From assembly GCA_003645085.1 (NCBI GenBank), contig QNEE01000001.1, forward strand, positions 1,282 through 65,281: DNA of 64,000 nucleotides, read 5' to 3'. The notes beneath the pieces were generated by a model. The model ran no database searches and was not told the origin of the DNA. It saw only the letters and a program-made list of their open reading frames with translations. The translations under genes and the position numbers were made by a program. Below, piece by piece: positions 21,901 through 52,450 of the stretch (the first letter of the stretch is position 1; each line of letters begins with the position of its first letter). Source of the stretch: a bacterium (GTDB lineage Bacteria > UBP14 > UBA6098).

Positions 21901-22401
21901 AAGGTCTATCTGGCTGGTGCCGTCGGCATAGACCGTGTCGGGTTCGGCGACGAAATAGATATAAGCCGGGTCGGTATAATTGGTAGGAAGAACGGTTATA
22001 TACAACCGTTTCGTTCGGATTTGCTCGGCGGTAACCTTGACGATAATCGTCGCCGTGTAGTTCGCCGTGCTGTCCTGTTCTGTCTGGAAAACGGTCGTAG
22101 CTATACCGCTGCTGTTTGTCAGAACCTTCTGGTTTTCGATAGTCCCATAATTCGTTGTGAACTCGACGGGAGCATCCGGAACCGGGTTCCCCGTTTCCGT
22201 TCCGACTACCAAAGCATAAACATTCGTCTCATCCCCCGCGATTAACGTCGAATAATCTGCCCATACGCTGTCGATTAGATAATCCGTGTCCGGGAATCCA
22301 ACCGTCCCACTTTTGCCGCAACCGCCGGCGAAAATAAGGGCAGAAATCGCAAGCGAAATTCCCGCCCAAATGATTAAACGAAATATATCTTTTTTATTCA
22401 T
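6925..22401 (-). CDS. Giant (5158 aa) cell-surface lipoprotein made of tandem bacterial Ig-like (Big_1 / invasin-intimin type) domains; putative adhesin.
   Basis: N-terminal lipoprotein signal MNKKDIFRLIIWAGISLAISALIFAGGC. Dozens of ~95-100-aa repeats sharing the motif ...TAxVxDxxGNPVxDGTxVxFxTxLGT...YTxSxGxAxxxLxSGxxxGTAxVxA... AAGGAG RBS 7 nt before ATG. Single uninterrupted ORF of 15.5 kb. Confidence 0.85.
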   Translation of the reverse strand: MNKKDIFRLIIWAGISLAISALIFAGGCGKSGTVGFPDTDYLIDSVWADYSTLIAGDETNVYALVVGTETGNPVPDAPVEFTTNYGTIENQKVLTNSSGIATTVFQTEQDSTANYTATIIVKVTAEQIRTKRLYITVLPTNYTDPAYIYFVAEPDTVYADGTSQIDLTATVLDASYSGLQNHKVLFNFIEGNLGDIILTVDNYAITDADGIVTGHFIAPNTGRLVVMSATVQGIYDSVSAVDSIWILEIPDVDFIDLRADPTSIPADGNSETELSAYVTVGATGTPAPDGTEILFTAEDGTLLPIEAYKSAPAEEVGRGRIAPNSKKTSPAMAALRHPAALTFKRRPAVSMVAYTVDGYARLRLRSSTTAHKVELTASAAVGTTGTIADTAYVTFTAGDPISVVVDAARTVINADGHDTTLITATVYDEYGNTCNTGWTVDFATDKGTVFPASALTDTAGRATTVLTSGVTTGYARVTATCEGASGYTEVLLTSTIPKYIQLNALPNQLPADGLSQSIITAEVLDSLYNPVTDGVRIKFFTDLGTLSSSRVRQRSLLDKGKGNFTADSREATTSGGFCSVILTSGYLADSCMVAAWYQMFDTLLADTVITATDTIYIPFLPGEPSRIDVSFSRDSILADNQDTCTVWADVFDAYDNPVGAGIQVTFSTDEDGGSVNPVSDNTDATGRAQTELTSSRNTGWHTITATASGATPGHGQIYFYPILPKELRVLADFDSATADGADQCTILVYITDDYDRPCSDGTPVTFRTDMGTFMPLARRTALFTGDGGDIGVIERISEEKDIAESAPRARVDPRSLMGGGSPAYDMAPFYDEFTTYTGEGSLLPGYAGVLLIAPTTIGTTWVYVSVVTGVADSAVDSMQVAFMPDVPMRIELTATPDTIPADSASSSIIEAYLTDAHFNPVGEGHLVEFSMVTGSEDFGHLTLETQITNAASICSTKFKSHYTTGEAVINAKLISDPDVTQNVSVWLTGALAGDIVLSIDSTTLDFESRMGVTAEVFDSIGAPITDGTIVNFTVEPVGYGEVVPAHPITSGGVATAEFRADTFAGDCDIIATVGSVADTKTVYIGPGAAGEIVLTTDSLHVHIGKTMGVKAQVYDSLGDPIRDGARVHFTVDLPEIGFVDPASPTTTDGQALATFHPDTIAGRGVIIATCDAVADTKTITVGPGPVATIILTATPDTLLSAGGERSEIVAECYDAFGNHAESGRDVTFEAIPDTMGNVISPMATDSLGVARTTYTGGTIVGRVVIRASIDGAVETVPIEIISTGPAYIIIYTDDIEITVGGNTVVHASVFDAGGRPVSDDTQVDFTASRGTLVPGFGFTVGGEASAELHATTAALVDTIIASADSGMIADTAFVHYVADCPVYIEVDVDPDSIFADGRARSTITATVRDVYLNYARPGTPILFDFDPGITIVPGLISTPAIVDSQGEAHTIYRASNVVGTAAMIAKYVNGPYGNYPADEITAQALFDVEQIEPIAAYITVTANPNRVVANGTDSTVVKARVLNEYAEPVADGTVVRFWNRDIYTGFPVGDMDTFAVTAGGDASITWRAPEIVTKAVVYGDVYGLSDSSIVEFIAGDVARVTVQVTPDSVPADGISTADVIATVYDAYDNPVSGVEVTFSAAPFGSFAVTVGNTDSLGQVTTEIYSDVIGVTWVSASAEDEGGTVYTDYDDVCFTTIVAAEIYLSSDTASLVADGISTTTIRAFVSDSSGFSVPDNTPIRFSTDLGFVFPGIGYTVDGEATTTLRSATTVGTATITGDAGDSVTGTCTVDFVPGPPATITLTAIPSSIPADGDTYTTIQAVVYDLNDNLVGAGEKINFSTTLGTIDSAAYTNSLGEATVRLYSGITPGTAVVWGVSGTAIGQTTVDLTNTQADDMFLYVDPVEIVADGYSTADVSGRVVNDLGGPISDGSPVVLSVTTDSLGPYGNMMPRTAHTDSGWFYATLTADRNAGTAYIIAEASPTVIESVMIELIPGPPDSIYIEASDTIIPADSFSTSDIHVEIFDRYDNPVDAGVTVGFDANKGTIDPTTETTNSFGHANALFTSGRVPGEARVRVSAEEAHNEIYLILTNSDVRYISVTTDTSAIVADALSSTFVRAYVTDSLGMPISDGTPVYFSIDTVSGLPDDTAKAFISPTVGFTTDGEAVVQIRSATETGRIWVQACTDSTNCANTFLDLIAGPVDSIEAWADDAAIPANGEAFTIVHARLYDRYGNSVGAGIEVRFETTAGSITPNVTYTNSSGQADAVLTAGVVPTIARIDIEAEGRHAVVQVNLDIAPPAYLSLRAEPRRIPADGESYSTVTAKVLNELGQPINDGTLVIFHSVDGGGADFGSIDTLATTTDGEAVVRLYSEPNTGTAYVSARVADSLSDTVQVIFTPGPPFSVTMQAIPNVLYANGSSICTVRTWVYDEYSNLVESGERINFVVGPESELGTMFPTYTFTDITGPSDVTFQAGVGVGRAVITGTCESGPAGYTMIDLIPLTVGAIDLFTDSMSLIADGVSQTIVHALVLDTSGVGVSDSTPIFFTTSAGNIFPGVAYTTSGAAEVTLRASSDVDTAMVIGYVGDPTDTYYVSDTVYVSFRAGEPYLIEIIPDSASLIADGASRTDINAYVFDPMGNRVAPGHLVYFSTTLGNIDTIAVTEIIAGTTGVAITSLQSGIVPGTALITATSGEAVDVGRVDFIPANVDEMFITIDPSLLVADGRSSAEVSGMVRNSLGNPITDGTPVHIYVIPDTSGIDLGYISPGTAYTDSGSFVSTFTAGTKAQTCHIVGYVGDTLGFYISDSVSCDLVPGEPDSIYMAASIGTLPADSFSVDTIRAYVFDRFGNPVRGGIEVTFSTSRGEVFPVSDETNSAGVVEVYLRSSFDQGVARVVGRSGIARGEVDVVFTPTNVFTVALMVDDVVMQADGYSETTCRASVLDSLGNPVSDGTPVIFSMWPDTIWDTLLTPSDTLGSLIPTIAYTTTGIAETQFRVTTKRGRVWIQASVDTISDAVFIQILPGVLSFIDIQSNPDTIAANGRDESQITATLYDDFGNRLLSGESVSFGTDLGTIAPSNTMTNSAGDAFSMLTAGTEPGIARVWAQSSGKFELTQVTFRKSDVGALLLTADPVELVADGMSQSIITCQVFDWEGSPITDGTRVNFRVRPADTAGTVVSPKLTFGGSCVTIFTASTQVGTGEAWIIGEVFDTMAVPPDTLIDSVRIFVKPGPATTINVWSDTAHTPTDTIWADGADDIFIYAEVLDQYGNHLEAGENVRFETSLGTITPTAITDTSGIAKSLLVAGLEPGNAVILAYCGEAMGYGEINLQATTVDNVLLVADSAELVANGTSTTKLYAYVYSAGGHLVSNNTQVRFEVPSGLALPLPADAYTDSGVATTVLKADTVATPGIEIWAIAGSDTGRTTIRLNPGPASRIVAYAIPGTLYADGASVAAIACTVYDRYPNPVAPATPVSFETTLGSIIPTGYTNTSGYAFTRLTASTESGHALVTIRCGEAIEFVDVFFDSLTAAEIIVNVIPTILPGDGTSTADITAYVYDAGGLPVSDNTRVTFTQDTTGGRPTGIITPRIAFTSGGQATAILTAPVDVGQGLIIGTVGATVVDSAMVTYIPGEPATIEFDTTYADTLPADGAGYDVVVRVYDAYHNPVNIGTEVTFETSRGEIISPSVVDSDSGTARTLLSSMETGPAFVTARSGVAVGSRPYYFYALTADVIDLVANPIRILADGSSTSNLLASVLDTTGGIRPVSDNTPVFFESRGGGIVTPRTAYTVDGQVTAQLIAGITTGPDTIIASVSPTVADTAVVDFIPGPPAIVAFVLPIRDMYADGADTQTVWVEVTDAFGNPVTPGLPISYDITIGYVTPASATNDSGFSYTVVIAETDFGTASLSARCSGVTGYATLNFLPLLAESLLLVVNPPQLTANGVETANLTAVVWDSTGLPVSDGTMVRFGTSDGIISPAVAYTLGGVATSSLIAGTTPADTVYVTASAGGTAIDTAYARFVPGPPSVMYISASDTVISANSADICTIFVEVYDEYGNPVSPGEEVTFSATLGDIVTTAYTDSSGRASVRLVSGSVSGFSNVTATSGDAHANILIEFTSTEVKEVNLTVVPTILTADGASTADVIVYVLDTTDNPVSDGTTVRFSDLSLGNVSPVFTTTTDGEANATITAYTSVGWDSLVATCGDSTDTVAILFESGPPAYVWLTPGRTTLMADETDTTMIHGEITDAFGNKVGAGHAVNFSIDPPDYGTIWSVAATDDSGWVDVPFRAGRYAGVAIVRANCEGAEGVTQIQLDPTDVGEVILSITPRYMPADGVTFADITAFVADTLGMPIADGTIVRFGQDTTLGSVEGLLNPNRETTTDGGATVHLFTPTVIGSTFVYAYVDTIYSDTISVYFLPGDIAVVRFDTNFVQLYADGVDTLADSVWVEDAFGNGIPGEAITFTLDLGSVTPPMAVTGPLGGVPFKVTSPTRIGSSYLQATSGGVNGYLPIDYLATTVDTIIISISPRGLPADGISTADVHVTVLDSLGNPVSDGVTVRFTAQMGLITPVDSLLSGVAEAILVAADTSGVDTIRAICQSETAFVTITYEAGSPDEITLTVVPDTATVGSSITSIVSGYVTDAADNPVAPGTYVYLSVDSVGTGSVADPIVATDDSGFYATLYTPGLNAGLTGITATVDGLSEHANILLYAGPPHTMDIAVSRDFIYIRGVGEIDQAVIEAVIYDEYDNPVRDSCAVVFRIVDYPTGGSINPELIPGGALVSDTVYTMAGRASVAARSGDRSGSMVVEAVAYIPGGGSIDSRAPRITIGSGLPFNVSVSREDCNVRGWDIDGVSNSIMAIVTDTFDNPVAPGTAVWFTALQGAITTSSVTDDSGFAFATWYSADPRGTTGIVTIIAETRDTSGVRADTVYFYNSGPADSMAISISPAVVYADATGTAEIQVSIWDVNRNPVTDGTSVNLITDWGSVTSPVTSVNECYSSYAVSTYTGANVFRDDYCGQDTAKAVNVTANIGGVVTSGTVYLKHDLPSSSNSTINAPSSVPYTCDFITSVRIVDQWDNPICGEDITLSGANVTIVTANPQTTGNTGEASWTCTAADTGGASIGVLMATINSTGGMLTTQVGYARRRPGRPPEEDIEGIPETVIEAPRTEFYIKEEQ

Positions 22402-32229: not shown

Positions 32230-35200
32230 ATGAAACCGAGGTGCATTTTTATTCTGTTTTTCTTATCGGCTTTGTCCATCGTCGGGTCGGTTACGTTTTC
32301 TAATCTCGGCGAGGAGTTTTTCCTTTGCTATCCTGGTAACGCCTGTCGCGAAACCGGAGGTAACCCGGTTCCGTTTTACAACGGTCAGATAATCCTGACA
32401 TCGACAGTCGCGACTATCGGGACTGTCCAGACGCGCACAGGGAGTTTTCTGGAGGAATTTACGATTCCGGCTTACGGAACCGCTACTGTCAGTATCGACT
32501 CTACGTTATGGCTCAGAAACTCCGAATATGTTTATGACCGTGGATTATCGATACGGGCGGCGGATACTATCGCGGCTTATTTTCTGTCATACGAGGAGCC
32601 GGGAGCTACAAACGATATGACTTTACTATTTCCGGTTCAGAGCCTTGGACAAGAGTATCTCGTTATGTGTTGGCGGGACAATATACCAACCTCCGGTTAT
32701 TTCCCGCACATTTTGAACCACGGCCCGAGTATGTTTGCTATTGTGGCGCCGTTCGATGGGACGCATATAACAATTACACCCTCGGTAACCACAGAGGGCG
32801 GTCATGCTGCCGGCGTTCCGTTCGATATTACTCTCGACGCCTACGAGGCATATCAGGTTCTGGCGAATTCGCCTTCGATTAGCGACCTTTACGACCTTAC
32901 GGGTTCGGAGATATTAGCCGACAAACCTGTAGCGGTATTTGCTGGTAGCCAACTCGCGTTTGTCCCGGATACGATTTTTGCGGCGGACTATCTTATCGAA
33001 CAAATCCCGCCTTTGACGGCGTGGGGTAAGAATTTCAACGCTTTCCCAATCGAGGGCAGGAATTGTTGGGAAAAGGATGTTCTAAAGATACTCGCTTCAG
33101 AAGATGCTACAACGGTTAATCTGGAAGATGCAAGCGGCGACACGATTATTCACCTCGACCGTGGAGAGTATTTCGAATGGAATGGTTATCCGTGCGACCC
33201 GGGGAATTACGTTCCTCTCGGCGGTTACGCCGCGGACTGCGAGGGTAAATTAATGGACAGCCCGACACGTATCGAATCCGATAAACCTATTCTTGTAGGG
33301 CAATTTATTACTGGCGGTGTCCTGACGAAATGCAATCCCGGTATATCCGGCTCGGGAAGCACGCCCTATGGCGACCCGGCATATATGATGATTCCTCCGG
33401 CGGAGCAATACGGCAAGCGATACGTATTCCTTATTCCCCCCGGCTACACTAACGACTATCTGAATGTCGCGATAGAGGGTGGTTACGAGGGGACGGTTAC
33501 GTTGGACGGCGGTCCGCCGACCTTCAGCACGAGCTGGTTCGATATCCCTTCGACTTCTATGCGCGGGGCACGTATCGAGGTCGACCCCGGAAACCACGTG
33601 CTTTTGGCCGATACGACTATGCTCCTGCAGATTTACGCATTCGACGACTACTGGGCGTCATACGCTGCTGTCGGCGGTCAGAAAATAGCGATAATCAACG
33701 CGGCATACGAGATAGTTAAATTCTGCGAATTAACACCTGCAATAAGCGGCTATAATACGCGGTGGCGCATAGTGTTAAGGCAGGTTATCGGGACAGGTTC
33801 GCATTCTATTACTATAGGCGATACTCTCCCGCCGGACTTTACTTTAAGTTCGACGCCCGTCGATATACAGCTTTTCGGTTCCGCGACACGCGATTCCGTT
33901 CTCGAACCGGTTCCGGGGGATAGTATCCTCGTATGGGGCTGGTTCAGTATGGAGGCTGAAGACTCGATAGTCATTACGTTCGACGCCGACATTCTCATCG
34001 GTGTCGAGGGCAGATTCGACAACGGCGTCTGGATAGCGAACGAATATGGCCTAAAAGCGGATAACGCTTACGGCTTGATGGACAGTCTCGACGATGTAGT
34101 CGTAATTATGCCTCCGATGCCTATCGCTGACGCTGGACCGGACACCTTTACAATGGCCGGAACGAGTATAAATATCGGCGGAAGCCCGACCGCGAGCAGC
34201 GGCACACCGCCATATATAATCGAGTGGACGAGCGACCCTGTCGGTTTCACCAGCAGCGACGCCAACCCGCTGGTTTCGCCCGCGGGATTAACCGAATATA
34301 TCGTTTGTGTAACGGATTCATTCGGGTTCTTCGATTACGACTCCTGCATTGTCGATATCACTATGGAAGAGAGGCATATCGAGTTCGGGATTGCCGACGG
34401 TTATCCGTGCGACATTGTGTATATCCCGCTCTATATCGATAGTATTCACTACTGTAGTATCGATAGTGCATGGATGCGTTTCGCGGTGGACCCGGATATT
34501 CTTACTCCTACGAATATTATTGTCTCGGGAACGATGACGGACGCGTGGGCAGTCTCCGGATTGAATATCGACGCGACATCGGGAACTATCGAGGCCTGGA
34601 TTCACGGCCCGAGGCTCGCCGATTTACCGGGAGGGATTCTGCTTATGCTGGAGGCGAGTATCGATTGTGAGGCTATCGGCGGAACGAGCAGCCCGGTCGT
34701 GGTGGACAGTTTCTTTTTCAACGACGGCCAACCGGCGGTAACCTGGTCACCCGGAATGTGTTTCGTGCAGCTTACGCCGGCACGTTTTTCCTGTGATATC
34801 AGACTCAATCGAACATCGGGGGTTCCGACGGAAGACAATGTGTTCACTATCGGTGCTACACACGCCGCTACCGACGGTTACGACGCCGGTCTCGACTGGA
34901 TTCTCGTGCCCGCACCTGCAACGTTCGTTCAGGGATTGCTGGATATCGACGACACGTTAAATCCGCATATCGAGGCGCTTCGGAAAGATATGCGTGATGT
35001 TTCTCCGCCCAAAACATGGCTTCTTATAACCGAGGGCGAGTCGAACGGCGTTGCACGGTGGTCGCCGGCGAGCTTGCCTGAAGGAGTTTTCCGTATCGAC
35101 GGCCTTGTCGATATGAAACGTGATACGATGATTTATTTCGGCCTCGACGATACGCTCGTCATAGAGTGGCTTGTGCCGGAATTGGAATCGGCAGGATTGA

Positions 35201-36282
35201 CGCTCTATTCCGGCTGGAATATGGTCAGCAGCCCGGTTCATCCGGCCGAGATACCGGCTAACGAGATATTCCACACAGAGTTTGGTGTGTTCCGCTATCT
35301 CAGTTTGGCGTGTTGTTATGATTTCGCCGACCTTATTCAGCGGGGAGAGGGCTATTGGGTCTGGTGTCCGGCGGAAACGACTATCTATATAGCGGGTAGC
35401 GAGATAACCGGTTATCGCTGGTCGGTCTATCGTGGGTGGAACCTTATCGGCGCGCCAAAAGAATGCGTATCGACTGCGGATATCGATATTACGCCGTCCG
35501 GCGGGATTCTCGGCGATATATATCATTGGGACGGCTCGACCTACATCGCTGTCGATTCGCTTTGCCCGGGCAAAGGTTACTGGCTGTTGAGCAACAACGA
35601 GGGAATATTACACGTTCCGACGGGGTATCGCCGGAGACCGTCTCCCGTTCCGGAAACTGTCTGGGAAACGGCGTTGACGCTTAAATTCGGCGATTCGATA
35701 GAACGGCTTTCGATTGGTTACGCGCCGGACGCTGCTTCGGGTCTCGGTTACGGCGATATCGCGCTGCCACCGGTTCCGCCGAATTCGGATGGTTACCTAT
35801 GTGCGCTTGTCGCCGACGGCATCCAGCTTGAGAGAGACTTATCGCCGGACAATCGTTGGGAATTGAATAACACGGAACAATGTGATATGAGTTTGGATAT
35901 CCCGGACGATATGAATATTCTTGTCGACGGTATCGAGATTACAGATGGTGTTCCTGTTCCACTTTCTGTCGGACGGCATATAATAGTCGCGTTAGCGGAG
36001 CGTCCGGAGAAATTCGCGGTTCTCGGTTGCGTTCCTAATCCGTTTAACGCGCAGACGGATATTGTAGTTGCGATTCCCCATAATGGGGCTGTTTTCGTGG
36101 AGATGTTCGACCTTTCGGGGCGCTCGGTATGGAGTGCCGAAAGCGATTATCCCGCCGGTATTGTCCGAATACCCTGGAAGGGTGAAGACCACACCGGTGC
36201 CGGAGTTTCGACCGGCCTTTATCTTGCCCGCGTTACATTCGCGGACGAGTCGATTGTCGTGAAGGCGATGTTTATAAAATAA
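32230..36282 (+). CDS. Large (1350 aa) secreted cell-surface protein with PKD/Ig-like region and T9SS C-terminal domain.
   Basis: Signal peptide MKPRCIFILFFLSALSIVGS. Internal PKD-like segment (…PIADAGPDTFTMAGTSINIGGSPTASSGTPPYIIEWTSDP…). C-terminus …VPNPFNAQTDIVVAIPHNGAVFVEMFDLSGRSVW…GLYLARVTF…KAMFIK is a T9SS CTD. AGGAGG RBS. Confidence 0.75.
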   Translation: MKPRCIFILFFLSALSIVGSVTFSNLGEEFFLCYPGNACRETGGNPVPFYNGQIILTSTVATIGTVQTRTGSFLEEFTIPAYGTATVSIDSTLWLRNSEYVYDRGLSIRAADTIAAYFLSYEEPGATNDMTLLFPVQSLGQEYLVMCWRDNIPTSGYFPHILNHGPSMFAIVAPFDGTHITITPSVTTEGGHAAGVPFDITLDAYEAYQVLANSPSISDLYDLTGSEILADKPVAVFAGSQLAFVPDTIFAADYLIEQIPPLTAWGKNFNAFPIEGRNCWEKDVLKILASEDATTVNLEDASGDTIIHLDRGEYFEWNGYPCDPGNYVPLGGYAADCEGKLMDSPTRIESDKPILVGQFITGGVLTKCNPGISGSGSTPYGDPAYMMIPPAEQYGKRYVFLIPPGYTNDYLNVAIEGGYEGTVTLDGGPPTFSTSWFDIPSTSMRGARIEVDPGNHVLLADTTMLLQIYAFDDYWASYAAVGGQKIAIINAAYEIVKFCELTPAISGYNTRWRIVLRQVIGTGSHSITIGDTLPPDFTLSSTPVDIQLFGSATRDSVLEPVPGDSILVWGWFSMEAEDSIVITFDADILIGVEGRFDNGVWIANEYGLKADNAYGLMDSLDDVVVIMPPMPIADAGPDTFTMAGTSINIGGSPTASSGTPPYIIEWTSDPVGFTSSDANPLVSPAGLTEYIVCVTDSFGFFDYDSCIVDITMEERHIEFGIADGYPCDIVYIPLYIDSIHYCSIDSAWMRFAVDPDILTPTNIIVSGTMTDAWAVSGLNIDATSGTIEAWIHGPRLADLPGGILLMLEASIDCEAIGGTSSPVVVDSFFFNDGQPAVTWSPGMCFVQLTPARFSCDIRLNRTSGVPTEDNVFTIGATHAATDGYDAGLDWILVPAPATFVQGLLDIDDTLNPHIEALRKDMRDVSPPKTWLLITEGESNGVARWSPASLPEGVFRIDGLVDMKRDTMIYFGLDDTLVIEWLVPELESAGLTLYSGWNMVSSPVHPAEIPANEIFHTEFGVFRYLSLACCYDFADLIQRGEGYWVWCPAETTIYIAGSEITGYRWSVYRGWNLIGAPKECVSTADIDITPSGGILGDIYHWDGSTYIAVDSLCPGKGYWLLSNNEGILHVPTGYRRRPSPVPETVWETALTLKFGDSIERLSIGYAPDAASGLGYGDIALPPVPPNSDGYLCALVADGIQLERDLSPDNRWELNNTEQCDMSLDIPDDMNILVDGIEITDGVPVPLSVGRHIIVALAERPEKFAVLGCVPNPFNAQTDIVVAIPHNGAVFVEMFDLSGRSVWSAESDYPAGIVRIPWKGEDHTGAGVSTGLYLARVTFADESIVVKAMFIK

Positions 36283-36439
36283 GGGGATGCACCCGAAACT
36301 GCCCGGGGTGTGGGAGAAAAAAGGCGACCACACAGGGCCGTCTATTTTTCAATTAGTCGCGCGGCTCCGGCTACGCAACGCAATTGCGCGATAATCTAGT
36401 AGGTCGAGCGTATCGCTCGACTGCGCGTGATGCAGCCAC

Positions 36440-37788
36440 ACATAGTAAGACCCAATATTTACTAGGGCAATTAGAAATGGATGGGTCGATTACTTCCACA
36501 ACCATATCCTTGTCAAACTGTTTTCTTATGCATTGGTGTCTTCGCGAGGAGGTCATACAAGCGCTATCGAGAGAATCCGAGAAGACATAGAGCGATTAAA
36601 ACGAGAGCTCCAAAAATGATAACAAAACCAATTCAACGCAATCTTTTTGGTGAAGAACTCGTAATCGTTCCGGAAACGGAAGGCATTAAGTATGCAGGCT
36701 CGAAGCTCAAACTGATTCCTCATATCATTGAACTCGTCCGTGAGACGAATGCCAAAACCATCTTGGATGGATTTTCTGGAACTACTAGGGTGTCGCAAGC
36801 ACTGTCCCAGTTGGGTTATAGAATTATCGCGAATGATGTAGCAATATGGTCGAGGATTTTTAGTATTTGCTATTTGCTGAATAAACGCCCTAGAAGTTAC
36901 TACGAAAGCATTATTGCTCATTTAAATTCTTTATCTCCCAAGTATGGATGGTTCACGGAAAATTATGGAGGAGAACCAAACAACGGTTCTGCCTTACAGA
37001 AAGACGGTTTCAAAAAGCCCTGGCAAATACATAACACAATGAAATTAGATGCAATTCGTGAAGAAATTGAACGGATGGAATTAGACGAAATTACGAAAGC
37101 GGTCTTGTTAACGAGTCTTATCCTTGCTCTCGACTCCGTGGACAGCACAATTGGCCATTACTCCTCTTATTTAAGCAAATGGTCGCCGAGGTCTTACAAT
37201 CGAATGGTGTTGAGGGTGCCTAAAGTAATCGAGCAAAAGGAAGAGCATGTCGTCTTTCAGAATGATATATTTGAACTTCTTGATAAGATAGAAGCTGATA
37301 TAGCCTATTTTGACCCGCCCTATGGGTCAAATAATGAAAAAATGCCGCCATCGAGAGTAAGATACTCTTCGTATTATCATATTTGGACGACAATTATCCT
37401 GAATGACAGGCCGAAACTCTTTGGGAGGGCTAGGAGGAGGTGTGATACGTCCGACACTGTGGCAGCCTCTGTGTTTGAAGAGTTTAGGAGAAATCCTGCA
37501 ACTGGCAGATTTATTGCGGTAGAGGCGATAGAACGTATGATTACGCAAATTAAGGCAAAATACGTTATTTTATCTTATAGTTCGGGTGGACGAGCAACTG
37601 CAGAAGACCTACAAGATTCTATAAAAAAGGTCGGGAAATTACAGAAGGTTGTTGAAGTGAATTATCAGAAAAATGTGATGGCTTGTATGAAATGGACAAA
37701 TGAGTGGATACGGGAAGCAGAAAAACCTCATCGGGAGTTCTTATTTCTTATAGAAAAGTAATGTCTAACAAAGCCTTACGCCTAACTT
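36440..37788 (+). mobile_element. Low-GC genomic islet carrying an orphan Dam-like DNA methyltransferase (horizontally acquired; no integrase or transposase seen).
   Basis: Visibly AT-richer (~40% GC by eye) than the flanking ~58% GC genes. Bounded on the right by the 44-bp repeat copy A. Confidence 0.4.
36616..37761 (+). CDS. DNA adenine methyltransferase, alpha-class (Dam/D12-like), apparently orphan. Start assigned to ATG 36616; the ORF track starts at 36481.
   Basis: N-terminal Dam-like SAM-binding region (IKYAGSKLKLIP…ILDGFSGTTRVSQAL, compare Dam KWAGGK…FVGAGSV) and downstream catalytic motif FDPPYGS (DPPY). Confidence 0.75.
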   Translation: MITKPIQRNLFGEELVIVPETEGIKYAGSKLKLIPHIIELVRETNAKTILDGFSGTTRVSQALSQLGYRIIANDVAIWSRIFSICYLLNKRPRSYYESIIAHLNSLSPKYGWFTENYGGEPNNGSALQKDGFKKPWQIHNTMKLDAIREEIERMELDEITKAVLLTSLILALDSVDSTIGHYSSYLSKWSPRSYNRMVLRVPKVIEQKEEHVVFQNDIFELLDKIEADIAYFDPPYGSNNEKMPPSRVRYSSYYHIWTTIILNDRPKLFGRARRRCDTSDTVAASVFEEFRRNPATGRFIAVEAIERMITQIKAKYVILSYSSGGRATAEDLQDSIKKVGKLQKVVEVNYQKNVMACMKWTNEWIREAEKPHREFLFLIEK

Positions 37789-37832
37789 CTATTCCGCCGG
37801 CGCTTTATAGCGGCAGGTGAGCTTAGTCGTTG
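37789..37832 (+). repeat. 44-bp repeat copy A (ctattccgccggcgctttatagcggcaggtgagcttagtcgttg), 27 bp downstream of the Dam-like MTase stop.
   Basis: 40/44 identical to the reverse complement of 47068-47111. Confidence 0.8.
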
Positions 37833-37866
37833 TGTAACGAGAATAAGGCAAAAAACCGAGATAACT

Positions 37867-38628
37867 ATGAAATGTAAAATGCTGGTATTACCACTAATCA
37901 TTACCCTTGTATCGGCCTATAATGCGATGGTTTTCGCCGAGTCGCTCGATGCCGAGAGCATAGTCCGCAAGGTAGACAAGCTATACCGCCATGAATCGAG
38001 CTACGCTAAGATGGAAATGCAGATAACGACACCGCACTGGGAACGGACGCTCGAGATGGAGGCCTGGAGCGAAGGTTTGGACAAAACCTTCATCGTAATA
38101 AACTCCCCTGCGAAGGAAAAAGGCACCGCGACGCTCCGTATCGGCAACGAGATGTGGAATTACCTGCCGAAAACAGACAAGACTATGAAAATCCCGCCTT
38201 CGATGATGATGAGTTCGTGGATGGGCTCTGATTTTAATAACGACGACCTCGTTAAAGAATCCTCGATGTTCGAGGACTACACATACGAGTTTTTCACGCC
38301 GGATGTGGTCGAGGATAGCATCATCTACCTCGTGCTAATCCCGAAAGAGAACACACCGATTGTATGGGGCAAAATCGAGCTGGCCGTCCGCGAAAGCGAT
38401 TATCTCCCTGTCTGGCAGAAATTCTACGACGAGAAGGGCGACCTGATGCGCGTTATGAATTTTAAAGAGATAAAACAACTAGGCGGCAAAACAATCCCGA
38501 CCGTAATGGAGCTTATTCCTAAAAATAAGGAAGGCCACATAACGGTGATAAGATACCTCGATGCGAAATTCGATATAAAACTCGACGACGATACATTTAC
38601 CCTTAGAAACCTACAGAAAAAGAGGTGA
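37867..38628 (+). CDS. LolA-like outer-membrane lipoprotein-sorting protein family member (partner of the FtsX-type permease).
   Basis: Signal peptide. ~250 aa. Conserved adjacency to a MacB/FtsX-like permease gene. Sequence features of the LolA_like/DUF4292-type beta-half-barrel family (inferred, not a strong motif match). Confidence 0.55.
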   Translation: MKCKMLVLPLIITLVSAYNAMVFAESLDAESIVRKVDKLYRHESSYAKMEMQITTPHWERTLEMEAWSEGLDKTFIVINSPAKEKGTATLRIGNEMWNYLPKTDKTMKIPPSMMMSSWMGSDFNNDDLVKESSMFEDYTYEFFTPDVVEDSIIYLVLIPKENTPIVWGKIELAVRESDYLPVWQKFYDEKGDLMRVMNFKEIKQLGGKTIPTVMELIPKNKEGHITVIRYLDAKFDIKLDDDTFTLRNLQKKR

Positions 38629-46657: not shown

Positions 46658-47011
46658 TCACTTTTTTGCTCTCTTTTCTTTAACTTTAGCGGCCTTGCCC
46701 TTTTTCTTGCGGAGATAATATAGTTTAGCTCTACGGACCTTACCGTGCTTAATAATCTCTATTTTCGTAACGTTAGGCGAATGGATAGGAAAAACTCTTT
46801 CGACACCGACTCCGCCGGAGACCTTGCGAACGGTCATCGTCTCGGTCGAGCCGCTGCCTTTCCGGCTGAGGACTATCCCCTGAAAAGCTTGGACACGTTC
46901 CTTGTCCCCTTCTTTAATGCGAACATGGACCTTAACCGTGTCGCCCGGACCAAACTCGGGCAATTCCTTAATTTGCGATGCGGTTACGTTTCTGATTATT
47001 GCGTCGGACAT
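46658..47011 (-). CDS. rplS: 50S ribosomal protein L19.
   Basis: [52 protein letters not shown]…. Confidence 0.95.
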
Positions 47012-47067
47012 TTTAATCTCCTCCTCCTATGATAAAAGCCTACTTTTCTTTATTCTAGATTTTATTC

Positions 47068-47111
47068 CAACGTCTAAGCTCACCTGCCGTTATAGAGCGC
47101 CAGCGGAATAG
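47068..47111 (-). repeat. 44-bp repeat copy B (caacgtctaagctcacctgccgttatagagcgccagcggaatag), the inverted copy of A. It lies 20 bp downstream of the beta-class MTase stop codon on the minus strand.
   Basis: 40/44 identical to the reverse complement of 37789-37832. Same position and orientation relative to its MTase as copy A. Confidence 0.8.
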
Positions 47112-47130
47112 CAGTCAGGTGGGGCGTTTA

Positions 47131-48174
47131 TTATGTGTTTATGTCACTTATATCTATTAATTCGTATTCAGGCTTAGGAGTAAAAAGGTCTCCTTTTAAT
47201 GTCTCTATTTTCTTGATAGTTGCTTTTATTGCATGTTCTGATTTATCTATACCAATCCACTTTCTACCAAGTAAATGAGCAGATTTTAATGTAGTTCCTG
47301 ATCCACAGAAGCAATCTAATACAATACTTTTACGATTGGACGATGTTTTGATAATTAAATCTAACATATCAGAATTCTTTTCTGTTGGATACGTTGGATA
47401 TTGTGGGTCTTTAAACTCCCAAATATCCTGAACTCTTTTACCTTCTCTTTCATCGGCAAAAATAATCTTTCTTGGGTTACCCGTCTTTGACCATTCAATA
47501 AGCCCTTCTTTATCCCATTGTTCAAGTGTTTCTACATCTGTTCTCCAATGTCTTCCTTTAGGAGGTAGCATTCCTTTAAACGGTTGGTTAGATTTACCGT
47601 TTTCCGTTTCACCTGGAGCATGTATGGGAACCGTTGTATATCTTCTTCCCTTTTCTATTTTTGGAAATAGTTTTTTTAAGTCATCTTCAGAGTATTTTTC
47701 TCTAGGTTCATTCCAAATCGGTTCCTGTGATTTTGTATAAAATAGAATAAGGTCTTTAATATTGCCATATCCTATTCTATTAAAGTTTTTAGGGTTACAT
47801 TTTATTCTTGTTATATCATTACGGAAATTTTCTATCCCAAATACTTCATCCATCATTACTTTTACATAATGTCCAATCTTATAATCAATATGAAGATAAA
47901 TTGACCCTTTATCTGTTAGCAACTCTTTTATTAACAGCAATCTTTGTCTTAAAAATTCGATAAAATCTTCTCCTATTAATTTATCAGAGTAAGCAATATC
48001 TCCATTTCGTGAATTACTTATTGTTGACGCTCTGCCATCAGTAATTGTAAAATTTCCATTTGTTGCAAATGGAGGGTCAATATACACTAAATCTATCTTT
48101 CCTTTTAAGTTTCTGGTGCTTAAAAGATATTTAAGACCTTCAATATTATCGCCTTTTATTATTATATTTTTCAT
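47131..48174 (-). CDS. Site-specific DNA methyltransferase, beta-class amino-MTase (N6-adenine or N4-cytosine).
   Basis: Motif IV LVYIDPPFATNG near the N-terminus. Motif I VLDCFCGSGTT near the C-terminus (beta-class circular permutation). Confidence 0.85.
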   Translation of the reverse strand: MKNIIIKGDNIEGLKYLLSTRNLKGKIDLVYIDPPFATNGNFTITDGRASTISNSRNGDIAYSDKLIGEDFIEFLRQRLLLIKELLTDKGSIYLHIDYKIGHYVKVMMDEVFGIENFRNDITRIKCNPKNFNRIGYGNIKDLILFYTKSQEPIWNEPREKYSEDDLKKLFPKIEKGRRYTTVPIHAPGETENGKSNQPFKGMLPPKGRHWRTDVETLEQWDKEGLIEWSKTGNPRKIIFADEREGKRVQDIWEFKDPQYPTYPTEKNSDMLDLIIKTSSNRKSIVLDCFCGSGTTLKSAHLLGRKWIGIDKSEHAIKATIKKIETLKGDLFTPKPEYELIDISDINT

Positions 48175-48185
48175 TATTTAAGAAC

Positions 48186-48977
48186 CTATAATTGGTAAAG
48201 GAATTCACGCAGAACTAAAGCACTCATGATATTATAATCTTGTAATTCTTCAGTTATTCTGCGATACATTTTATTTCTACCCTCAATATAGAGTACACCA
48301 TCTAATATTGCAACTTTAATTGCGTCAACATCTGTTGTTACTGTACTGACAGCATCGTTAAATTGGGCATTTTGATGCCCGCCAAAATCTGTTAAGAACT
48401 TTGCCTCCCCAATAACATATTGATTGTTGAATCTTGCCACAAAATCCAACCCTTTTTTATGATTATAGCCAAGATGCTCTCTTGCAAACCGCATCATCTC
48501 TGCATCTCCAGCATCTAATATGGCATTCTCATCAGAATTTATAAATTGTTCAAAAGGAATAGGCCTCACTCCAAGTACACCTCTATTCAACCATCTTCTA
48601 AATAATGGACCAATTTGTCTATTTGTTTCTTTTGGTTCTGAACATCTCTCATAAATTTTTTCTAATCCCATTTCATAAAGGCGCCCGCATAATCTATTAA
48701 CAGTTTGTGGATTTCTTTCTATTGCCGATTTGTCTCGTTTTAAATATGCAACATAGGAATCCTTGATTGGAAATAAATCAAACCTTAACAGTGTTTTTAG
48801 AAGTTCGATATTATTTTGACTATTGAAGTATTCCTCAACAGATTCCCATAATTCGTCATCAATATCTCTTATTCCTTCTGGAATAGTAGGATACACACTA
48901 AATAATTCGTCTAAGTAGTTTCTTTGATTAGCAAACTCAATACTTAATTGTGTCCAATAGTTCATAAATTTCTCCAT
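48186..48977 (-). CDS. Putative Type II restriction endonuclease (PD-(D/E)xK candidate) partnered with the MTase.
   Basis: 263 aa, no known housekeeping similarity. Possible catalytic …D…VIGEAKF (ExK) segment. Located immediately upstream of the MTase. Confidence 0.55.
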   Translation of the reverse strand: MEKFMNYWTQLSIEFANQRNYLDELFSVYPTIPEGIRDIDDELWESVEEYFNSQNNIELLKTLLRFDLFPIKDSYVAYLKRDKSAIERNPQTVNRLCGRLYEMGLEKIYERCSEPKETNRQIGPLFRRWLNRGVLGVRPIPFEQFINSDENAILDAGDAEMMRFAREHLGYNHKKGLDFVARFNNQYVIGEAKFLTDFGGHQNAQFNDAVSTVTTDVDAIKVAILDGVLYIEGRNKMYRRITEELQDYNIMSALVLREFLYQL

Positions 48978-49114
48978 TTGTTTTTACACACAATTCTTTA
49001 TATTTAACATTATCGGTAAATTCCTGCTAAATGTCAAGTCCGAGTAGAGAATTTTAATAGTATATTTCTGACCGTTTTTAAAGGGGGTATTTTCGCTTTC
49101 ATTATTTGGACTTA

Positions 49115-52100
49115 CTACCGAATAAGAAGAACCTTCGCGCCGCGACTTTGCGCGACGGAAACAGGTCTTATATAATATACGCCCGAAGGAAGATTTTCGG
49201 CCTTAAATGTGAATTTATATGTTCCCGGTGATAACCGTCCGCCAAAGGGCGTAGAAACGATTCTACCGGTTATATCGAAAATATCTAACTCGATTTGCAT
49301 CTCGTTCTTCGCGGAGACGCGAATTTCTATCGAAACCGTTTCGTTAAAGGGATTCGGCCAGACACGGTCAACAGAGATTTCGTCTGGCACCGTTTTATAT
49401 TCTTCGATAGAACCTCCGGTTCCGAGCGGCATCCAGATTTTCAGAGTGGTAATATAGGAAGCGCTTTCCGATGTTAAACGAACCGGAACCTCGATAAGGC
49501 TGTCTGTGGGCGAATAGACGGCTGTGCTACACAAAATCACGCTAGAACCGTTATATAGTCTATCTCCAGCCGGTATATCTCCAAGTAGAATCGGTGTGGC
49601 GCCCGGATACGCGAAAGGTGTCGCTATTACTTCGGCCTCAACTCCTGGGGCATCAGCACCACCGCCGTTTTCTATGCGCATCCTTATTCCGACCAACTCC
49701 CCCGGCTCGATTATCCCGTTGTCGTTGCCGAACGAATCGTCGAAAGAAAGGCTGTCGAGTAGGTAAAGCCAAGGGGAAGTGGAAGACATAGCTCCCCCCA
49801 ACGGGATACTTATATCGAAAGTATCATAATATTCGTAGGTTATACACCCGCCAGCAAGAACGAGTGAGAAATCCAACAGGCTTCCGGGGACAAGCTCGGG
49901 TGAGACGCTTATATTAAAACCGGGAGAAAGCGACCGGGCGGAAACCGCCGGGAAAGCATATATATCGTTGTAGTCGAGGGTAATAATAACGCTGTCTTCG
50001 TCTGTAGATAGGATTCCGACGACGTATTCCGCTGCGGCAAACGTATTATTGTGCAAATCGATACATATATCCGCGACCTCGCCAACATCGAGAACCCCGT
50101 TGTCATTGCCATAGGGATAAAAATCGTGGATACAAACGGAATCTATACCTGCAGAAAACCGATGGATGCCGGCTACGGGCTGGAAGGCTTTTAGCCACGG
50201 ACCGTCCGGGTGACCGCTAATAAGAATTGAAAAAAAGACCGTATCGACCGAGGGAAAATCCTCCGGGACAACAAAACGCACCTCGTCACCCTCTATTGTA
50301 TCCCATGTCGCCGCCGCCGGGAAGTCCGAAAGCGAATCGAGCCAGATTACAGGCACACTACAACCGACTTTACCCGTCAGTGTCGTGGCCGTATCCATCC
50401 CGAGATTCACAATGCGCGGATAAAAGCTATAAGTTTCGCCGGGGTTTATCAGACTATCGCCGTTGCCGGCTATCTCATTATAGCATATAGGCGCGGAATA
50501 TATCACGACTCCGGAAACGATAACGTCGATGGTGTCAACAAATGGATGCAGATTCGGTCCGGTTACGACTAAGATTATTTTCCGCGACGGGTCTGGAAAG
50601 ACGTCTATATCGATAGAGGCATCGCCCGCCGGATTCGTAATCGCGAAAGACATCGTGCTGTCCTGTGTTATCGCGACTCTCGCGTTTTCGACCGGAACAC
50701 CACCGGCAAAAACGGTAACGGGCACGGTGCAAAATCCCGCCGGTAAAGCGGACGGATATGTAACTTCGGGATATTGTATCGGCGCCGTCCAGGCGAGCAT
50801 TTCCGGGCTACCTATCAGGTTCGCCGTTTTATATTCGTAAACGGCTCTCGAGGAGCCTCCGAATTCCGCCCACATCTCGTTCTTTCCGTATGTGTGCGCA
50901 GCGGCGAGTTCGTTCAGGCCGACCTCGAGAAGCCCCTCGGAAATATGTTTCGAGAGGGAGGACCGTTCTAGAGAATATACGCTTACAACGGACTGCCCGA
51001 ACCAAGCTACCGAACCGCGAGGATTGGCAACCGACCCGGCGCGTGTGCTTAGTTCGCATATATTGTCATCGCCGGCGTGGAACCTGCCGGTTACGCAGGT
51101 TATCGAGTTCGTTACGGGGCATTTGCGTCCGGTGTTAAGGTTATATAGGTTTGTAAACGGATAATACCAATCGGGAAAGGCCTGGCCACGATAGACGACA
51201 TAGCTGCAACCCGCCTGAATGTATGGCAAAACGTCGCTACTCGTATGCCCCAGGGAATCCCTGAAAACCGGCGCCGATATAAAACCGTTCGCAAGGGATT
51301 GTTCCATTGCATATATCACGGCCGCCGCGTAAGAGGAATCGACAGGCCCATACGGCGGGCCGTCCTCGTTGACCACCCCTACCGCACGCACCCACCAACT
51401 ATCGGCCATATCCGGTTGCATCTCGAAATTTAAGTGCTTTCTTACGAGAATATCGACGTGACTATCGGTATCGCACGACATTCTCCCCGGGAAAATATCC
51501 GGAAATTGGTCGACACCGTCAACACAACCGTAGTAGTTATCCCCCGTTCCGTAGTCGCCCCACTCGTAAGTCGGTATCTGGTCCGAATCACCTATAAACA
51601 GCAAATAAACCGGTGGAATCGCCCATGTGTCGTAAGCGGTCTGGATATACGATTTAATACTCGCCAGACTGGTCCCGGTAACGCTCGTTGGGACCACTAT
51701 CGTCGGGATACCTTTCAGAAGTTTCCACTCTATCCAGGGTTGGACCGCATAGACAAAACCATCGTAGGCGATAACCAGCAATTCCGCACCGTCATCCGGG
51801 TCCCATTCGGTCGCTGAATATGTCGCCCGGTTGGGAATAGCGGCGTCTGGGTTTACGAGCGTGGCGCGATACAACCGCTCGAAAGCGGGATGGTAAAGCC
51901 TTCTATCGCACGCTGTTCCCTCCCCACCCGTATGATTAACGACGATTTCCGCGTTTCGCATAAATCTGATGCCGCGGTTAGGGTCATATTCCACTGGTAT
52001 CAGGTCTATGGCCGCTATCTCTACCCCGCGAATTGTGAACGAACCAATAAATTCGGCACCGCCGCCGAAGGACCGAGAATACAATTGCTTATCGATATCA

Positions 52101-52450
52101 GGGGAATCGCCCGGATAGTTCGTTATCGAACCGACCGGTGCAGGTAGGATATCGACCCAATCCGACCAGTCGATATCGACAAGGTCGACCGAAATATCCG
52201 AACCGCGAGGTATCGCTACTCTATAAACTCGCCCACAAAGACACGGGGCTCCCGGTTTTCCACGGTAACCGAAACCGTCGAGACCGAGGCGAAAATAGCC
52301 TTTGCCCATCTCATCTATCGAAGGTTCCGACAATTCGACCGAGAATCGCGTGAATTCTGAATTGTCGGCGATAAGATGTGCGTTGTCGAGACCGACCGTC
52401 GCCCCGGCGAGGATAATCAGGATAATATAAAGTGATATTTTCATGGACAT
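49115..52450 (-). CDS. C25-family cysteine peptidase with T9SS C-terminal domain; PorU-like (T9SS sortase) candidate.
   Basis: Signal peptide. Segment …AELLVIAYDGFVYAVQPWIEWKLLKGIPTIVVPTSVTGTSLASIKSYIQTAYDTWAIPPVYLLFIGDSDQIPTY… matches the gingipain/PorU (C25) N-terminal catalytic region. C-terminus …VWPNPFNETVSIEIRV…GVYYIRPVSV…KVLLIR is a T9SS CTD. Size (1111 aa) is similar to PorU. Confidence 0.65.
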   Translation of the reverse strand: MSMKISLYIILIILAGATVGLDNAHLIADNSEFTRFSVELSEPSIDEMGKGYFRLGLDGFGYRGKPGAPCLCGRVYRVAIPRGSDISVDLVDIDWSDWVDILPAPVGSITNYPGDSPDIDKQLYSRSFGGGAEFIGSFTIRGVEIAAIDLIPVEYDPNRGIRFMRNAEIVVNHTGGEGTACDRRLYHPAFERLYRATLVNPDAAIPNRATYSATEWDPDDGAELLVIAYDGFVYAVQPWIEWKLLKGIPTIVVPTSVTGTSLASIKSYIQTAYDTWAIPPVYLLFIGDSDQIPTYEWGDYGTGDNYYGCVDGVDQFPDIFPGRMSCDTDSHVDILVRKHLNFEMQPDMADSWWVRAVGVVNEDGPPYGPVDSSYAAAVIYAMEQSLANGFISAPVFRDSLGHTSSDVLPYIQAGCSYVVYRGQAFPDWYYPFTNLYNLNTGRKCPVTNSITCVTGRFHAGDDNICELSTRAGSVANPRGSVAWFGQSVVSVYSLERSSLSKHISEGLLEVGLNELAAAHTYGKNEMWAEFGGSSRAVYEYKTANLIGSPEMLAWTAPIQYPEVTYPSALPAGFCTVPVTVFAGGVPVENARVAITQDSTMSFAITNPAGDASIDIDVFPDPSRKIILVVTGPNLHPFVDTIDVIVSGVVIYSAPICYNEIAGNGDSLINPGETYSFYPRIVNLGMDTATTLTGKVGCSVPVIWLDSLSDFPAAATWDTIEGDEVRFVVPEDFPSVDTVFFSILISGHPDGPWLKAFQPVAGIHRFSAGIDSVCIHDFYPYGNDNGVLDVGEVADICIDLHNNTFAAAEYVVGILSTDEDSVIITLDYNDIYAFPAVSARSLSPGFNISVSPELVPGSLLDFSLVLAGGCITYEYYDTFDISIPLGGAMSSTSPWLYLLDSLSFDDSFGNDNGIIEPGELVGIRMRIENGGGADAPGVEAEVIATPFAYPGATPILLGDIPAGDRLYNGSSVILCSTAVYSPTDSLIEVPVRLTSESASYITTLKIWMPLGTGGSIEEYKTVPDEISVDRVWPNPFNETVSIEIRVSAKNEMQIELDIFDITGRIVSTPFGGRLSPGTYKFTFKAENLPSGVYYIRPVSVAQSRGAKVLLIR

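Follow-up and report, generated by a model that had tools for sequence, protein, structure and literature searches.

Both copies of an inverted repeat in a 64,000-nucleotide stretch of bacterial DNA (hereafter the window) are very probably attC sites of integron gene cassettes that lie outside any integron. The two cassettes, here called A and B, are type II restriction-modification (R-M) operons with the gene order R, M, attC. Each consists of a lone attC and its cassette, and the 64-kb window encodes no tyrosine recombinase; the two are thus SALINs (single attC sites lacking integron-integrase), isolated cassettes of the attG-insertion type. The element belongs to a known kind, and what is new here is an unusually clean natural example of it. 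In this way an unexplained repeat becomes annotation: two integron-derived R-M cassettes outside any integron.

The repeat pair and its place in the window

The initial annotation described a 44-nt repeat at 37789-37832 on the plus strand with an inverted second copy at 47068-47111. Direct comparison with the reverse complement confirms the pair, which differs at 4 of 44 positions (40/44 identity). A repeat search extends it to 52 nt at 88% identity (37781-37832 / 47068-47119), the longest inverted repeat of the window. Exact matches to its 16-nt core, CGGCAGGTGAGCTTAG, occur in the window only at the two copies; allowing up to three mismatches raises the number to three, where chance would give about 0.3. 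Copy A begins 27 nt past the stop codon of a methyltransferase (MTase) gene of the D12 class, and copy B 19 nt past that of a beta-class (N6_N4) MTase gene. The position just past MTase stop codons and the identical orientation relative to the MTase are therefore as first annotated, and Pfam assignments (PF02086 on the plus strand, PF01555 on the minus strand) agree with the further claim that the two MTases are of different classes and lie on opposite strands.

The functional unit is longer than the 44-mer. Alignment of relatives with the window copies reveals about 30 further conserved bases 5' of 37789, so that the 44-mer is the 3' part of a 72-nt site, scored by covariance models at 60-83 bits. 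In A this site starts 3 nt past the stop codon; in B it overlaps the stop. The two sites are 9.2 kb apart on opposite strands, and each has the same orientation as the genes on either side; the downstream one is a LolA-like lipoprotein gene (37867-38628) after copy A and rplS after copy B. The features concerned are as follows.

37764-37835, plus strand: attC_A; covariance scores 73.8 bits (model R1) and 60.7 bits (model R2); aligns with the family
37763-37769 and 37829-37835, plus strand: attC_A boxes R'' GTCTAAC and R' GTTGTGT
36616-37761, plus strand: D12-class (alpha) N6-adenine DNA MTase, 381 aa; Pfam PF02086, E 2e-24
47065-47136, minus strand: attC_B; covariance scores 83.2 bits (R1) and 69.5 bits (R2); 17 of 23 pairs Watson-Crick
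47136-47130 and 47071-47065, minus strand: attC_B boxes R'' ACATAAT and R' GTTGGAA
47131-48174, minus strand: N6/N4 (beta-class) DNA MTase, 347 aa; Pfam PF01555, E 2e-42
46658-47011, minus strand: rplS (ribosomal protein L19); Pfam PF01245; identical protein in filled and empty contigs

Model R2 is the broader of the two covariance models. Run with filters off over the 64 kb, it returns only two significant sites, B at 69.5 bits and A at 60.7 bits, and its next-best match scores 13.8 bits (E 0.25). A weak third copy had been suspected near 49094-49128. Neither covariance model matches there, and when that segment is aligned locally to the family consensus the best score is 11, which equals the 90th percentile for random windows. 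Over the whole 72 nt, A and B are 72% identical to each other and 79-82% identical to attCs of other phyla, which makes them independent family members and not duplicates. The whole window contains no Rfam family at gathering thresholds, and a tRNA/tmRNA scan of it found none; the element is thus neither a known RNA family nor a tRNA-derived att site. Viral contigs scanned with the core pattern gave 0 matches, which argues that the element is not phage-borne.

The rest of the window includes a single 5158-aa open reading frame (ORF) on the minus strand (6925-22401). It has many internal degenerate repeats (families D1-D6 and D9-D13) and probably encodes a giant repetitive protein of the surface or adhesin type. 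At 49115-52450 (minus strand) lies the gene of a C25-family peptidase that carries a T9SS C-terminal sorting domain, and at 32230-36282 (plus strand) that of a 1350-aa IgGFc-binding-like protein with an FlgD-Ig-like C-terminus. The T9SS-sorted peptidase and the FlgD-Ig-like C-terminus together suggest a host in a T9SS-bearing (FCB-type) lineage.

attC anatomy, arrays and cargo of the family

Relatives of the element were collected in two ways. When one genome per species was scanned with a degenerate core of 22 bases, six contigs of metagenome-assembled genomes (MAGs) were retrieved, labelled Campylobacteraceae, Desulfosoma, Nitrospirae, Thermodesulfovibrio, Deltaproteobacteria and 'bacterium'. 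Covariance model R1 and a metagenome scan (34 contigs) brought 66 matches, 50 of them distinct. The family consensus, CCTAAC-AAATC-GCTC(C)ACCTG(A)CCGCTAT-loop-ATAGCGGCAGGTGAGC-TTAGTC-GTTAGGC, folds as a long imperfect hairpin with two single-base bulges. CTAAC and GTTAG stand on either side of this hairpin and form base pairs with one another. The boxes read YMTAAC (R'' consensus) and GTTAGGC or GTTATGC (R' consensus); unpaired spacers of 5-6 nt separate them from a 16-bp L stem. Counted from the beginning of R'', the bulged bases occupy positions 17 and 23; they are C and A in the top strand, G and T in the bottom strand, and belong to the 5' arm, the one with the top-strand AAC. Terminal loops range from 2 to about 40 nt across the family, and some array members have wholly different stem sequences within the same architecture.

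These are the features by which attC sites are defined (Nivina 2016, PMC5027507): R' and R'' boxes (RYYYAAC / GTTRRRY), an L box, an unpaired central spacer and extrahelical bases that adjoin L'' on the arm bearing the top-strand AAC. AAC is the sole conserved triplet of attC and the terminal structure is variable; in attCaadA7 the extrahelical bases are G16 and T23 (PMC5027507). All attC features defined in that work are present in the family. In an alignment of the distinct members, 89% of cells are paired, against 25-43% when the partners are slid; the R-box pairs are 82% and the L helix 91% paired. Changes on both sides are seen at 15 of 23 pairs (13 of 16 in the L helix) and none of 500 shuffles reaches the observed values, in an alignment that was fitted to the model, so that the counts are biased towards the structure. 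As single-stranded DNA, the first relatives aligned fold at -12.6 to -17.9 kcal/mol (z -2.3 to -3.9), and intact members of the family at -15 to -19 kcal/mol (z down to -4.4). The initial annotation had seen no conserved stable hairpin in the repeat. The element does form one, and its 5' arm lies upstream of 37789-37832, the segment first described. A dif/Xer-like site, considered for a partial dyad around TTTATA, was dropped, as the extended alignment shows the long hairpin and the R boxes.

Family members lie where attCs are expected to lie. In most of the 63 non-overlapping matches a co-oriented ORF precedes the element and stops within about -8 to +14 nt of it, frequently inside R''. The ORFs show no relation to each other, and their products are cargo typical of cassettes: HicA and YafQ toxins, GNAT, glyoxalase, GmrSD, TylF-type methyltransferases, ankyrin and ADH. 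Co-oriented arrays hold seven sites in 7.4 kb (L021), eight in 7 kb (L044), four (L027), three (L029) and at least six (L059), spaced roughly 0.5-2.3 kb apart. In one case a family attC sits about 1.9 kb from a bona fide integron integrase: the Nitrospirae MAG contig L003 encodes an integrase with the IntI-specific insertion (TIGR02249, 393 bits against a cutoff of 265) and has two attCs besides, one of them a close family member. On this contig (275-3023, minus strand) the integrase gene lies upstream of the cassettes and is co-oriented with them, unlike the divergent arrangement of classical integrons. Three other candidates for IntI were rejected: L028 9746-10567 is XerD-like and scores under the IntI cutoff, and L061 5046-5720 and L062 1109-2320 are generic tyrosine recombinases. 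The MAGs with members are assigned to Campylobacterota, Desulfobacterota, Nitrospirota and Thermotogota, labels that may carry binning errors. Three long contigs (L031, L036 and L039, of 21, 58 and 209 kb) share the same 190-aa ORF followed by a family attC, a single site in the stretches examined; they probably represent more SALINs, or isolated cassettes, with attCs of this family.

Both window copies follow MTase genes, of different classes and in the same orientation, and homologous R-M pairs elsewhere carry the element too, so that one could envision an attachment site dedicated to MTase or R-M cassettes and always placed at MTase 3' flanks. We consider this very improbable. The link to MTases, on which the initial annotation had put weight, dissolves outside the window: among 41 distinct ORFs upstream of family members there, 0 encode a DNA MTase (D12 or N6_N4), and the cargo is diverse. 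The full attC anatomy and the close member on a contig with an integron integrase also count against such a dedicated site. That both window cassettes are R-M operons simply happens to be so.

A hairpin repeat of the REP/MITE or RAYT/IS200 type, dispersed in intergenic regions, is slightly less probable again. The element is short, palindromic and intergenic, and on one contig (L001) it is preceded, at a distance of about 1 kb, by a gene for an IS200-like Y1 transposase. However, such a transposase is absent from most loci, the window holds just two copies, and near-identical copies are spread over phyla instead of being high-copy in one genome. Members are also strictly co-oriented with the abutting preceding ORF, recur at one-cassette intervals and are flanked by RYYYAAC and GTTRRRY boxes. 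The initial annotation had named a dispersed REP/MITE-like element with no preference for MTase flanks as the outcome that would speak against it; the lack of preference proved correct, while the REP/MITE character did not.

The two cassettes and their insertion sites

The features that define the extent of the cassettes are these.

47071-48993, minus strand: cassette B, complete, 1923 bp, 5' TTGTGTG...R...M...attC...G 3'; the alleles differ by exactly this segment
48186-48965, minus strand: Tsp45I-family type II restriction endonuclease (REase), 259 aa; Pfam PF06300, E 2e-125
48993/48994, minus strand: left junction of cassette B, from a three-way alignment of the window, L059 and L010
49009-49037, minus strand: predicted sigma-70-type rplS promoter, TTGACA-17-GATAAT; consensus match 11/12, the best in the region
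36455-36619, plus strand: REase remnant of cassette A, last ~54 codons; tblastn 70-78% identity to residues 225-278 of the 278-aa ORFs of L053 and L054

Cassette B is present in some strains and missing from others. Eight contigs encode an identical L19 protein: six carry the R-M pair and the element, and two (L010 and L011) are without them. In these two the C25 peptidase gene is followed directly by rplS, and attC_B is missing. Identity to the window flanks is 99.6-100% in filled contigs and 98.9-99.2% in empty ones. The empty allele reads ...AAATATAAAGAG|TTGGAATCTAGAATAAAG... (AAAGAG|TTGGAAT) at the junction. In the filled allele the left junction is ...AAATATAAAGAA|TTGTGTGTAAAAAC... (AAAGAA|TTGTGTG) and the right junction ...GAGCTTAGACG|TTGGAATAAAATCTAG... 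(TTAGACG|TTGGAAT), with the attC_B crossover, G|TT, between 47071 and 47070. The target GTT agrees with the genomic attG consensus, 5'-GWT-3' (Loot et al., bioRxiv 10.1101/2022.09.11.507474).

The fit to a simple G|TT insertion is imperfect. The base 5' of the left junction is A in the filled and G in the empty allele, and indels of 12 and 5 nt lie within about 30 nt of the junction. All these differences fall at window 48994-49010 and 47055-47064, compared with L010 2225-2262. The 12-nt direct-repeat unit, CGGCAAATATAA, is found in the empty allele only, and the 5-nt indel is AAAAT; the flanks of the filled and empty alleles are otherwise about 99% identical. These junction-side differences could be intergenic polymorphism, a footprint of insertion or excision, or a re-tuned rplS leader.

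The same cassette exists in an array elsewhere. In the metagenome contig L059 its homolog is 81.6% identical at the nucleotide level over 1926 bp (blastn span, window 48993-47077). The homology begins right behind the G of the attC-like 3' end in front of it, at the first T, and extends into a family attC that is intact (85 bits; -18.7 kcal/mol, z -3.9). This cassette is part of the L059 array of at least six co-oriented attCs. The pair of Tsp45I-type REase and N6/N4 MTase is found in L061-L064 as well as in L059, and the REase homologs are uniformly 259 aa. In L063 the same R-M type lies between two other attCs, next to ThsB-TIR cassettes. L063 (1048-2078) and L064 (792-1822) each have two adjacent ThsB-like TIR-domain ORFs before the Tsp45I-type R-M cassette, a defence-cassette cluster in an environmental integron attC array. 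The GC content is 32.8% in cassette B, 41% in cassette A and about 50% in the host. The samples that hold the cassette B homolog array (JGI 3300033141 and 3300033148; L059/L060) and the one that holds the window's strain (3300033149; L007/L049) have adjacent numbers, and donor-type arrays and recipient may co-occur in one habitat.

Cassette B landed in the 5' untranslated region of rplS, its junction about 15 nt downstream of the predicted -10 box. The promoter match is present and identical in the empty-site contigs. Neither a terminator-like nor a promoter-like site was found between the M gene and rplS, and within the cassette no promoter-like match reaches the strength of the one at rplS. 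Cassette B is thus most likely transcribed from the predicted rplS promoter, with rplS read through behind it. This predicted read-through agrees with the report that genome-inserted cassettes are expressed when they are near host promoters (Loot et al., bioRxiv 10.1101/2022.09.11.507474).

Since the element stands 35-57 nt upstream of the next start codon in the sense orientation, it might also be taken for a transcription terminator, or for a 5' leader or regulatory RNA of the LolA-like gene and rplS. That is about as improbable as the REP/MITE reading. There is no T-tract, and the terminator scan was negative at both sites; the window copies fold no better than shuffles and match no Rfam family; and strains about 99% identical to the window's have rplS without the element. 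The attC anatomy and the filled and empty alleles instead bear out the initial annotation's preference for a DNA-level recombination site or cassette boundary over a terminator.

Cassette A is a reduced version of the same arrangement. In relatives, the D12 MTase (381-383 aa in homologs, up to 89% identical) is preceded by a 278-aa ORF, presumably its cognate restriction endonuclease, with overlapping stop and start codons. In the window stop codons lie just upstream of the REase remnant in the same frame, and GC content drops at the start of the remnant, from 57% (36283-36454) to 41%. A deletion removed the 5' four-fifths of the cassette A REase gene together with the cassette's 5' boundary; since only the last ~54 REase codons are kept, the D12 MTase is an orphan left by 5' deletion of an R-M cassette. 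The attC_A crossover, G|TT, lies between 37829 and 37830. A TTAGTC at 36353 was rejected as the original 5' end of the cassette: it is one mismatch from TTAGAC, about 1.5 such matches are expected, and its surroundings (36283-36454) have host-like GC.

The intact counterpart of cassette A is preserved elsewhere. L053 carries the complete D12 R-M pair preceded by another attC that ends G|TTAGAC, the exact complement of the cassette's R'' (GTCTAAC), as a circularising cassette requires. Mesotoga contigs carry the same D12 R-M pair followed by a decayed attC of the same family. In L053 (2993-4566) only R'' and the beginning of L'' (TCTAACAAATCGCTAC...) are left of the attC that follows the pair. 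An IS110-family transposase gene is close by on the downstream side, which suggests that an IS inserted into this attC.

A search for the empty site of cassette A recovered no such allele: all four contigs with an identical LolA-like neighbour also carry the MTase, and the next homologs of that neighbour are just 66-69% identical. With no empty site found and the 5' boundary deleted, we infer by analogy with cassette B that cassette A would have reached its locus in the same way. The hexamer TTGTGT at 37830-37835, which follows attC_A and is presumed host sequence, is identical to the first six bases of cassette B (48993-48988). Such sharing is expected had B once followed A in an array; under the standard model it would be coincidence (~1/256, with TT fixed).

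Insertion, decay and relation to known systems

The bottom strand of attC folds into an imperfect hairpin that IntI cuts within 5'-AAC-3', equivalent to G|TT on the coding strand (PMC5027507), and the cassette, once excised as a circle, enters attI or, with lower specificity, genomic attG (Loot et al., bioRxiv 10.1101/2022.09.11.507474). For the window, insertion would have been catalysed by an IntI encoded elsewhere in the genome or acting in trans. Cassette B would have joined the chromosome at the G|TT of the rplS 5' UTR, to be expressed thereafter from the rplS promoter with rplS downstream in the same read-through. Cassette A has lost most of its REase gene, leaving the orphan MTase.

Both window attCs are probably decaying and now poorly mobile or immobile, to judge from their sequences. 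Neither copy folds better than shuffles (z ~0), and 14 of 23 pairs are Watson-Crick in A and 17 of 23 in B, compared with 17-23 for most members. In attC_A the 5' (L'') arm has decayed and there is no stable fold; in attC_B the AAC of R'' is mutated to AAT, in a box that overlaps the stop codon of M. The last 6 nt of each window R' are host-derived, as expected after insertion. Present-day recombination competence of either copy appears doubtful.

With one attC sequence family common to cassettes of at least five phyla in communities of anoxic and sediment type, one may tentatively imagine a cross-phylum cassette pool, complete R-M systems among its members, that seeds chromosomes, perhaps ones without integrons, and from which a cassette captured the rplS promoter; we regard this broader scenario as possible and rather unlikely. 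If it held, transcription of rplS through the R-M operon could hold the cassette fast and promote the decay of its attC hairpin, and off-integron insertion would be a natural route that spreads defence systems and makes orphan MTases in uncultured lineages.

Apart from that scenario, the window documents one path to orphan methyltransferases, by deletion of the REase gene from an R-M cassette, and an essential ribosomal protein gene that is now downstream of an acquired R-M operon. It also offers a base-pair-resolved natural case of the attG route, otherwise demonstrated experimentally in E. coli: one population holds both the filled and the empty allele, and an array elsewhere carries the same cassette. 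The attC family and its covariance model are usable for tracing cassette exchange between phyla in environmental metagenomes.

Like integron attCs, or 59-base elements, the family has R''/R' boxes with AAC/GTT, an L box, a spacer, two extrahelical bases and a variable loop. As in integron gene cassettes, attC stands at the 3' end of promoterless ORFs, the members form co-oriented arrays and the ends are at G|TT. Unlike integron attCs, the window copies are solitary, outside any integron and partly decayed (the L'' arm in A, AAC to AAT in B). High similarity in sequence, beyond a common structure, across many different cassettes is shared with the Vibrio cholerae repeats (VCRs) and other species-specific attC families; in contrast to VCRs, this family occurs in MAGs of several phyla and not in one genus, a distribution to which binning errors may contribute.

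R-M systems of type II are already known as cargo of integrons. Compact type II R-M operons as single cassettes are a likeness to the defence cassettes of chromosomal and mobile integrons (Darracq et al., bioRxiv 10.1101/2024.07.02.601686; 'Mobile integrons encode phage defense systems', bioRxiv 10.1101/2024.07.02.601719), as are the GmrSD, ThsB-TIR and toxin genes of the related arrays. The window cassettes differ in that they lie outside integrons and one has degenerated to an orphan methyltransferase.

SALINs and attG insertions are the closest likeness (bioRxiv 10.1101/2022.09.11.507474; IntegronFinder 2.0, PMC9024848): one attC and its cassette without an integrase in the neighbourhood, a 5'-GWT-3' target (GTT) and a position beside a host promoter able to drive a promoterless cassette. 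The case differs from the E. coli assay of Loot et al. in being a natural filled/empty polymorphism of an uncultured bacterium, in the G/A substitution and the 12-nt and 5-nt indels that flank the junction, and in its target, the 5' UTR of an essential ribosomal protein gene.
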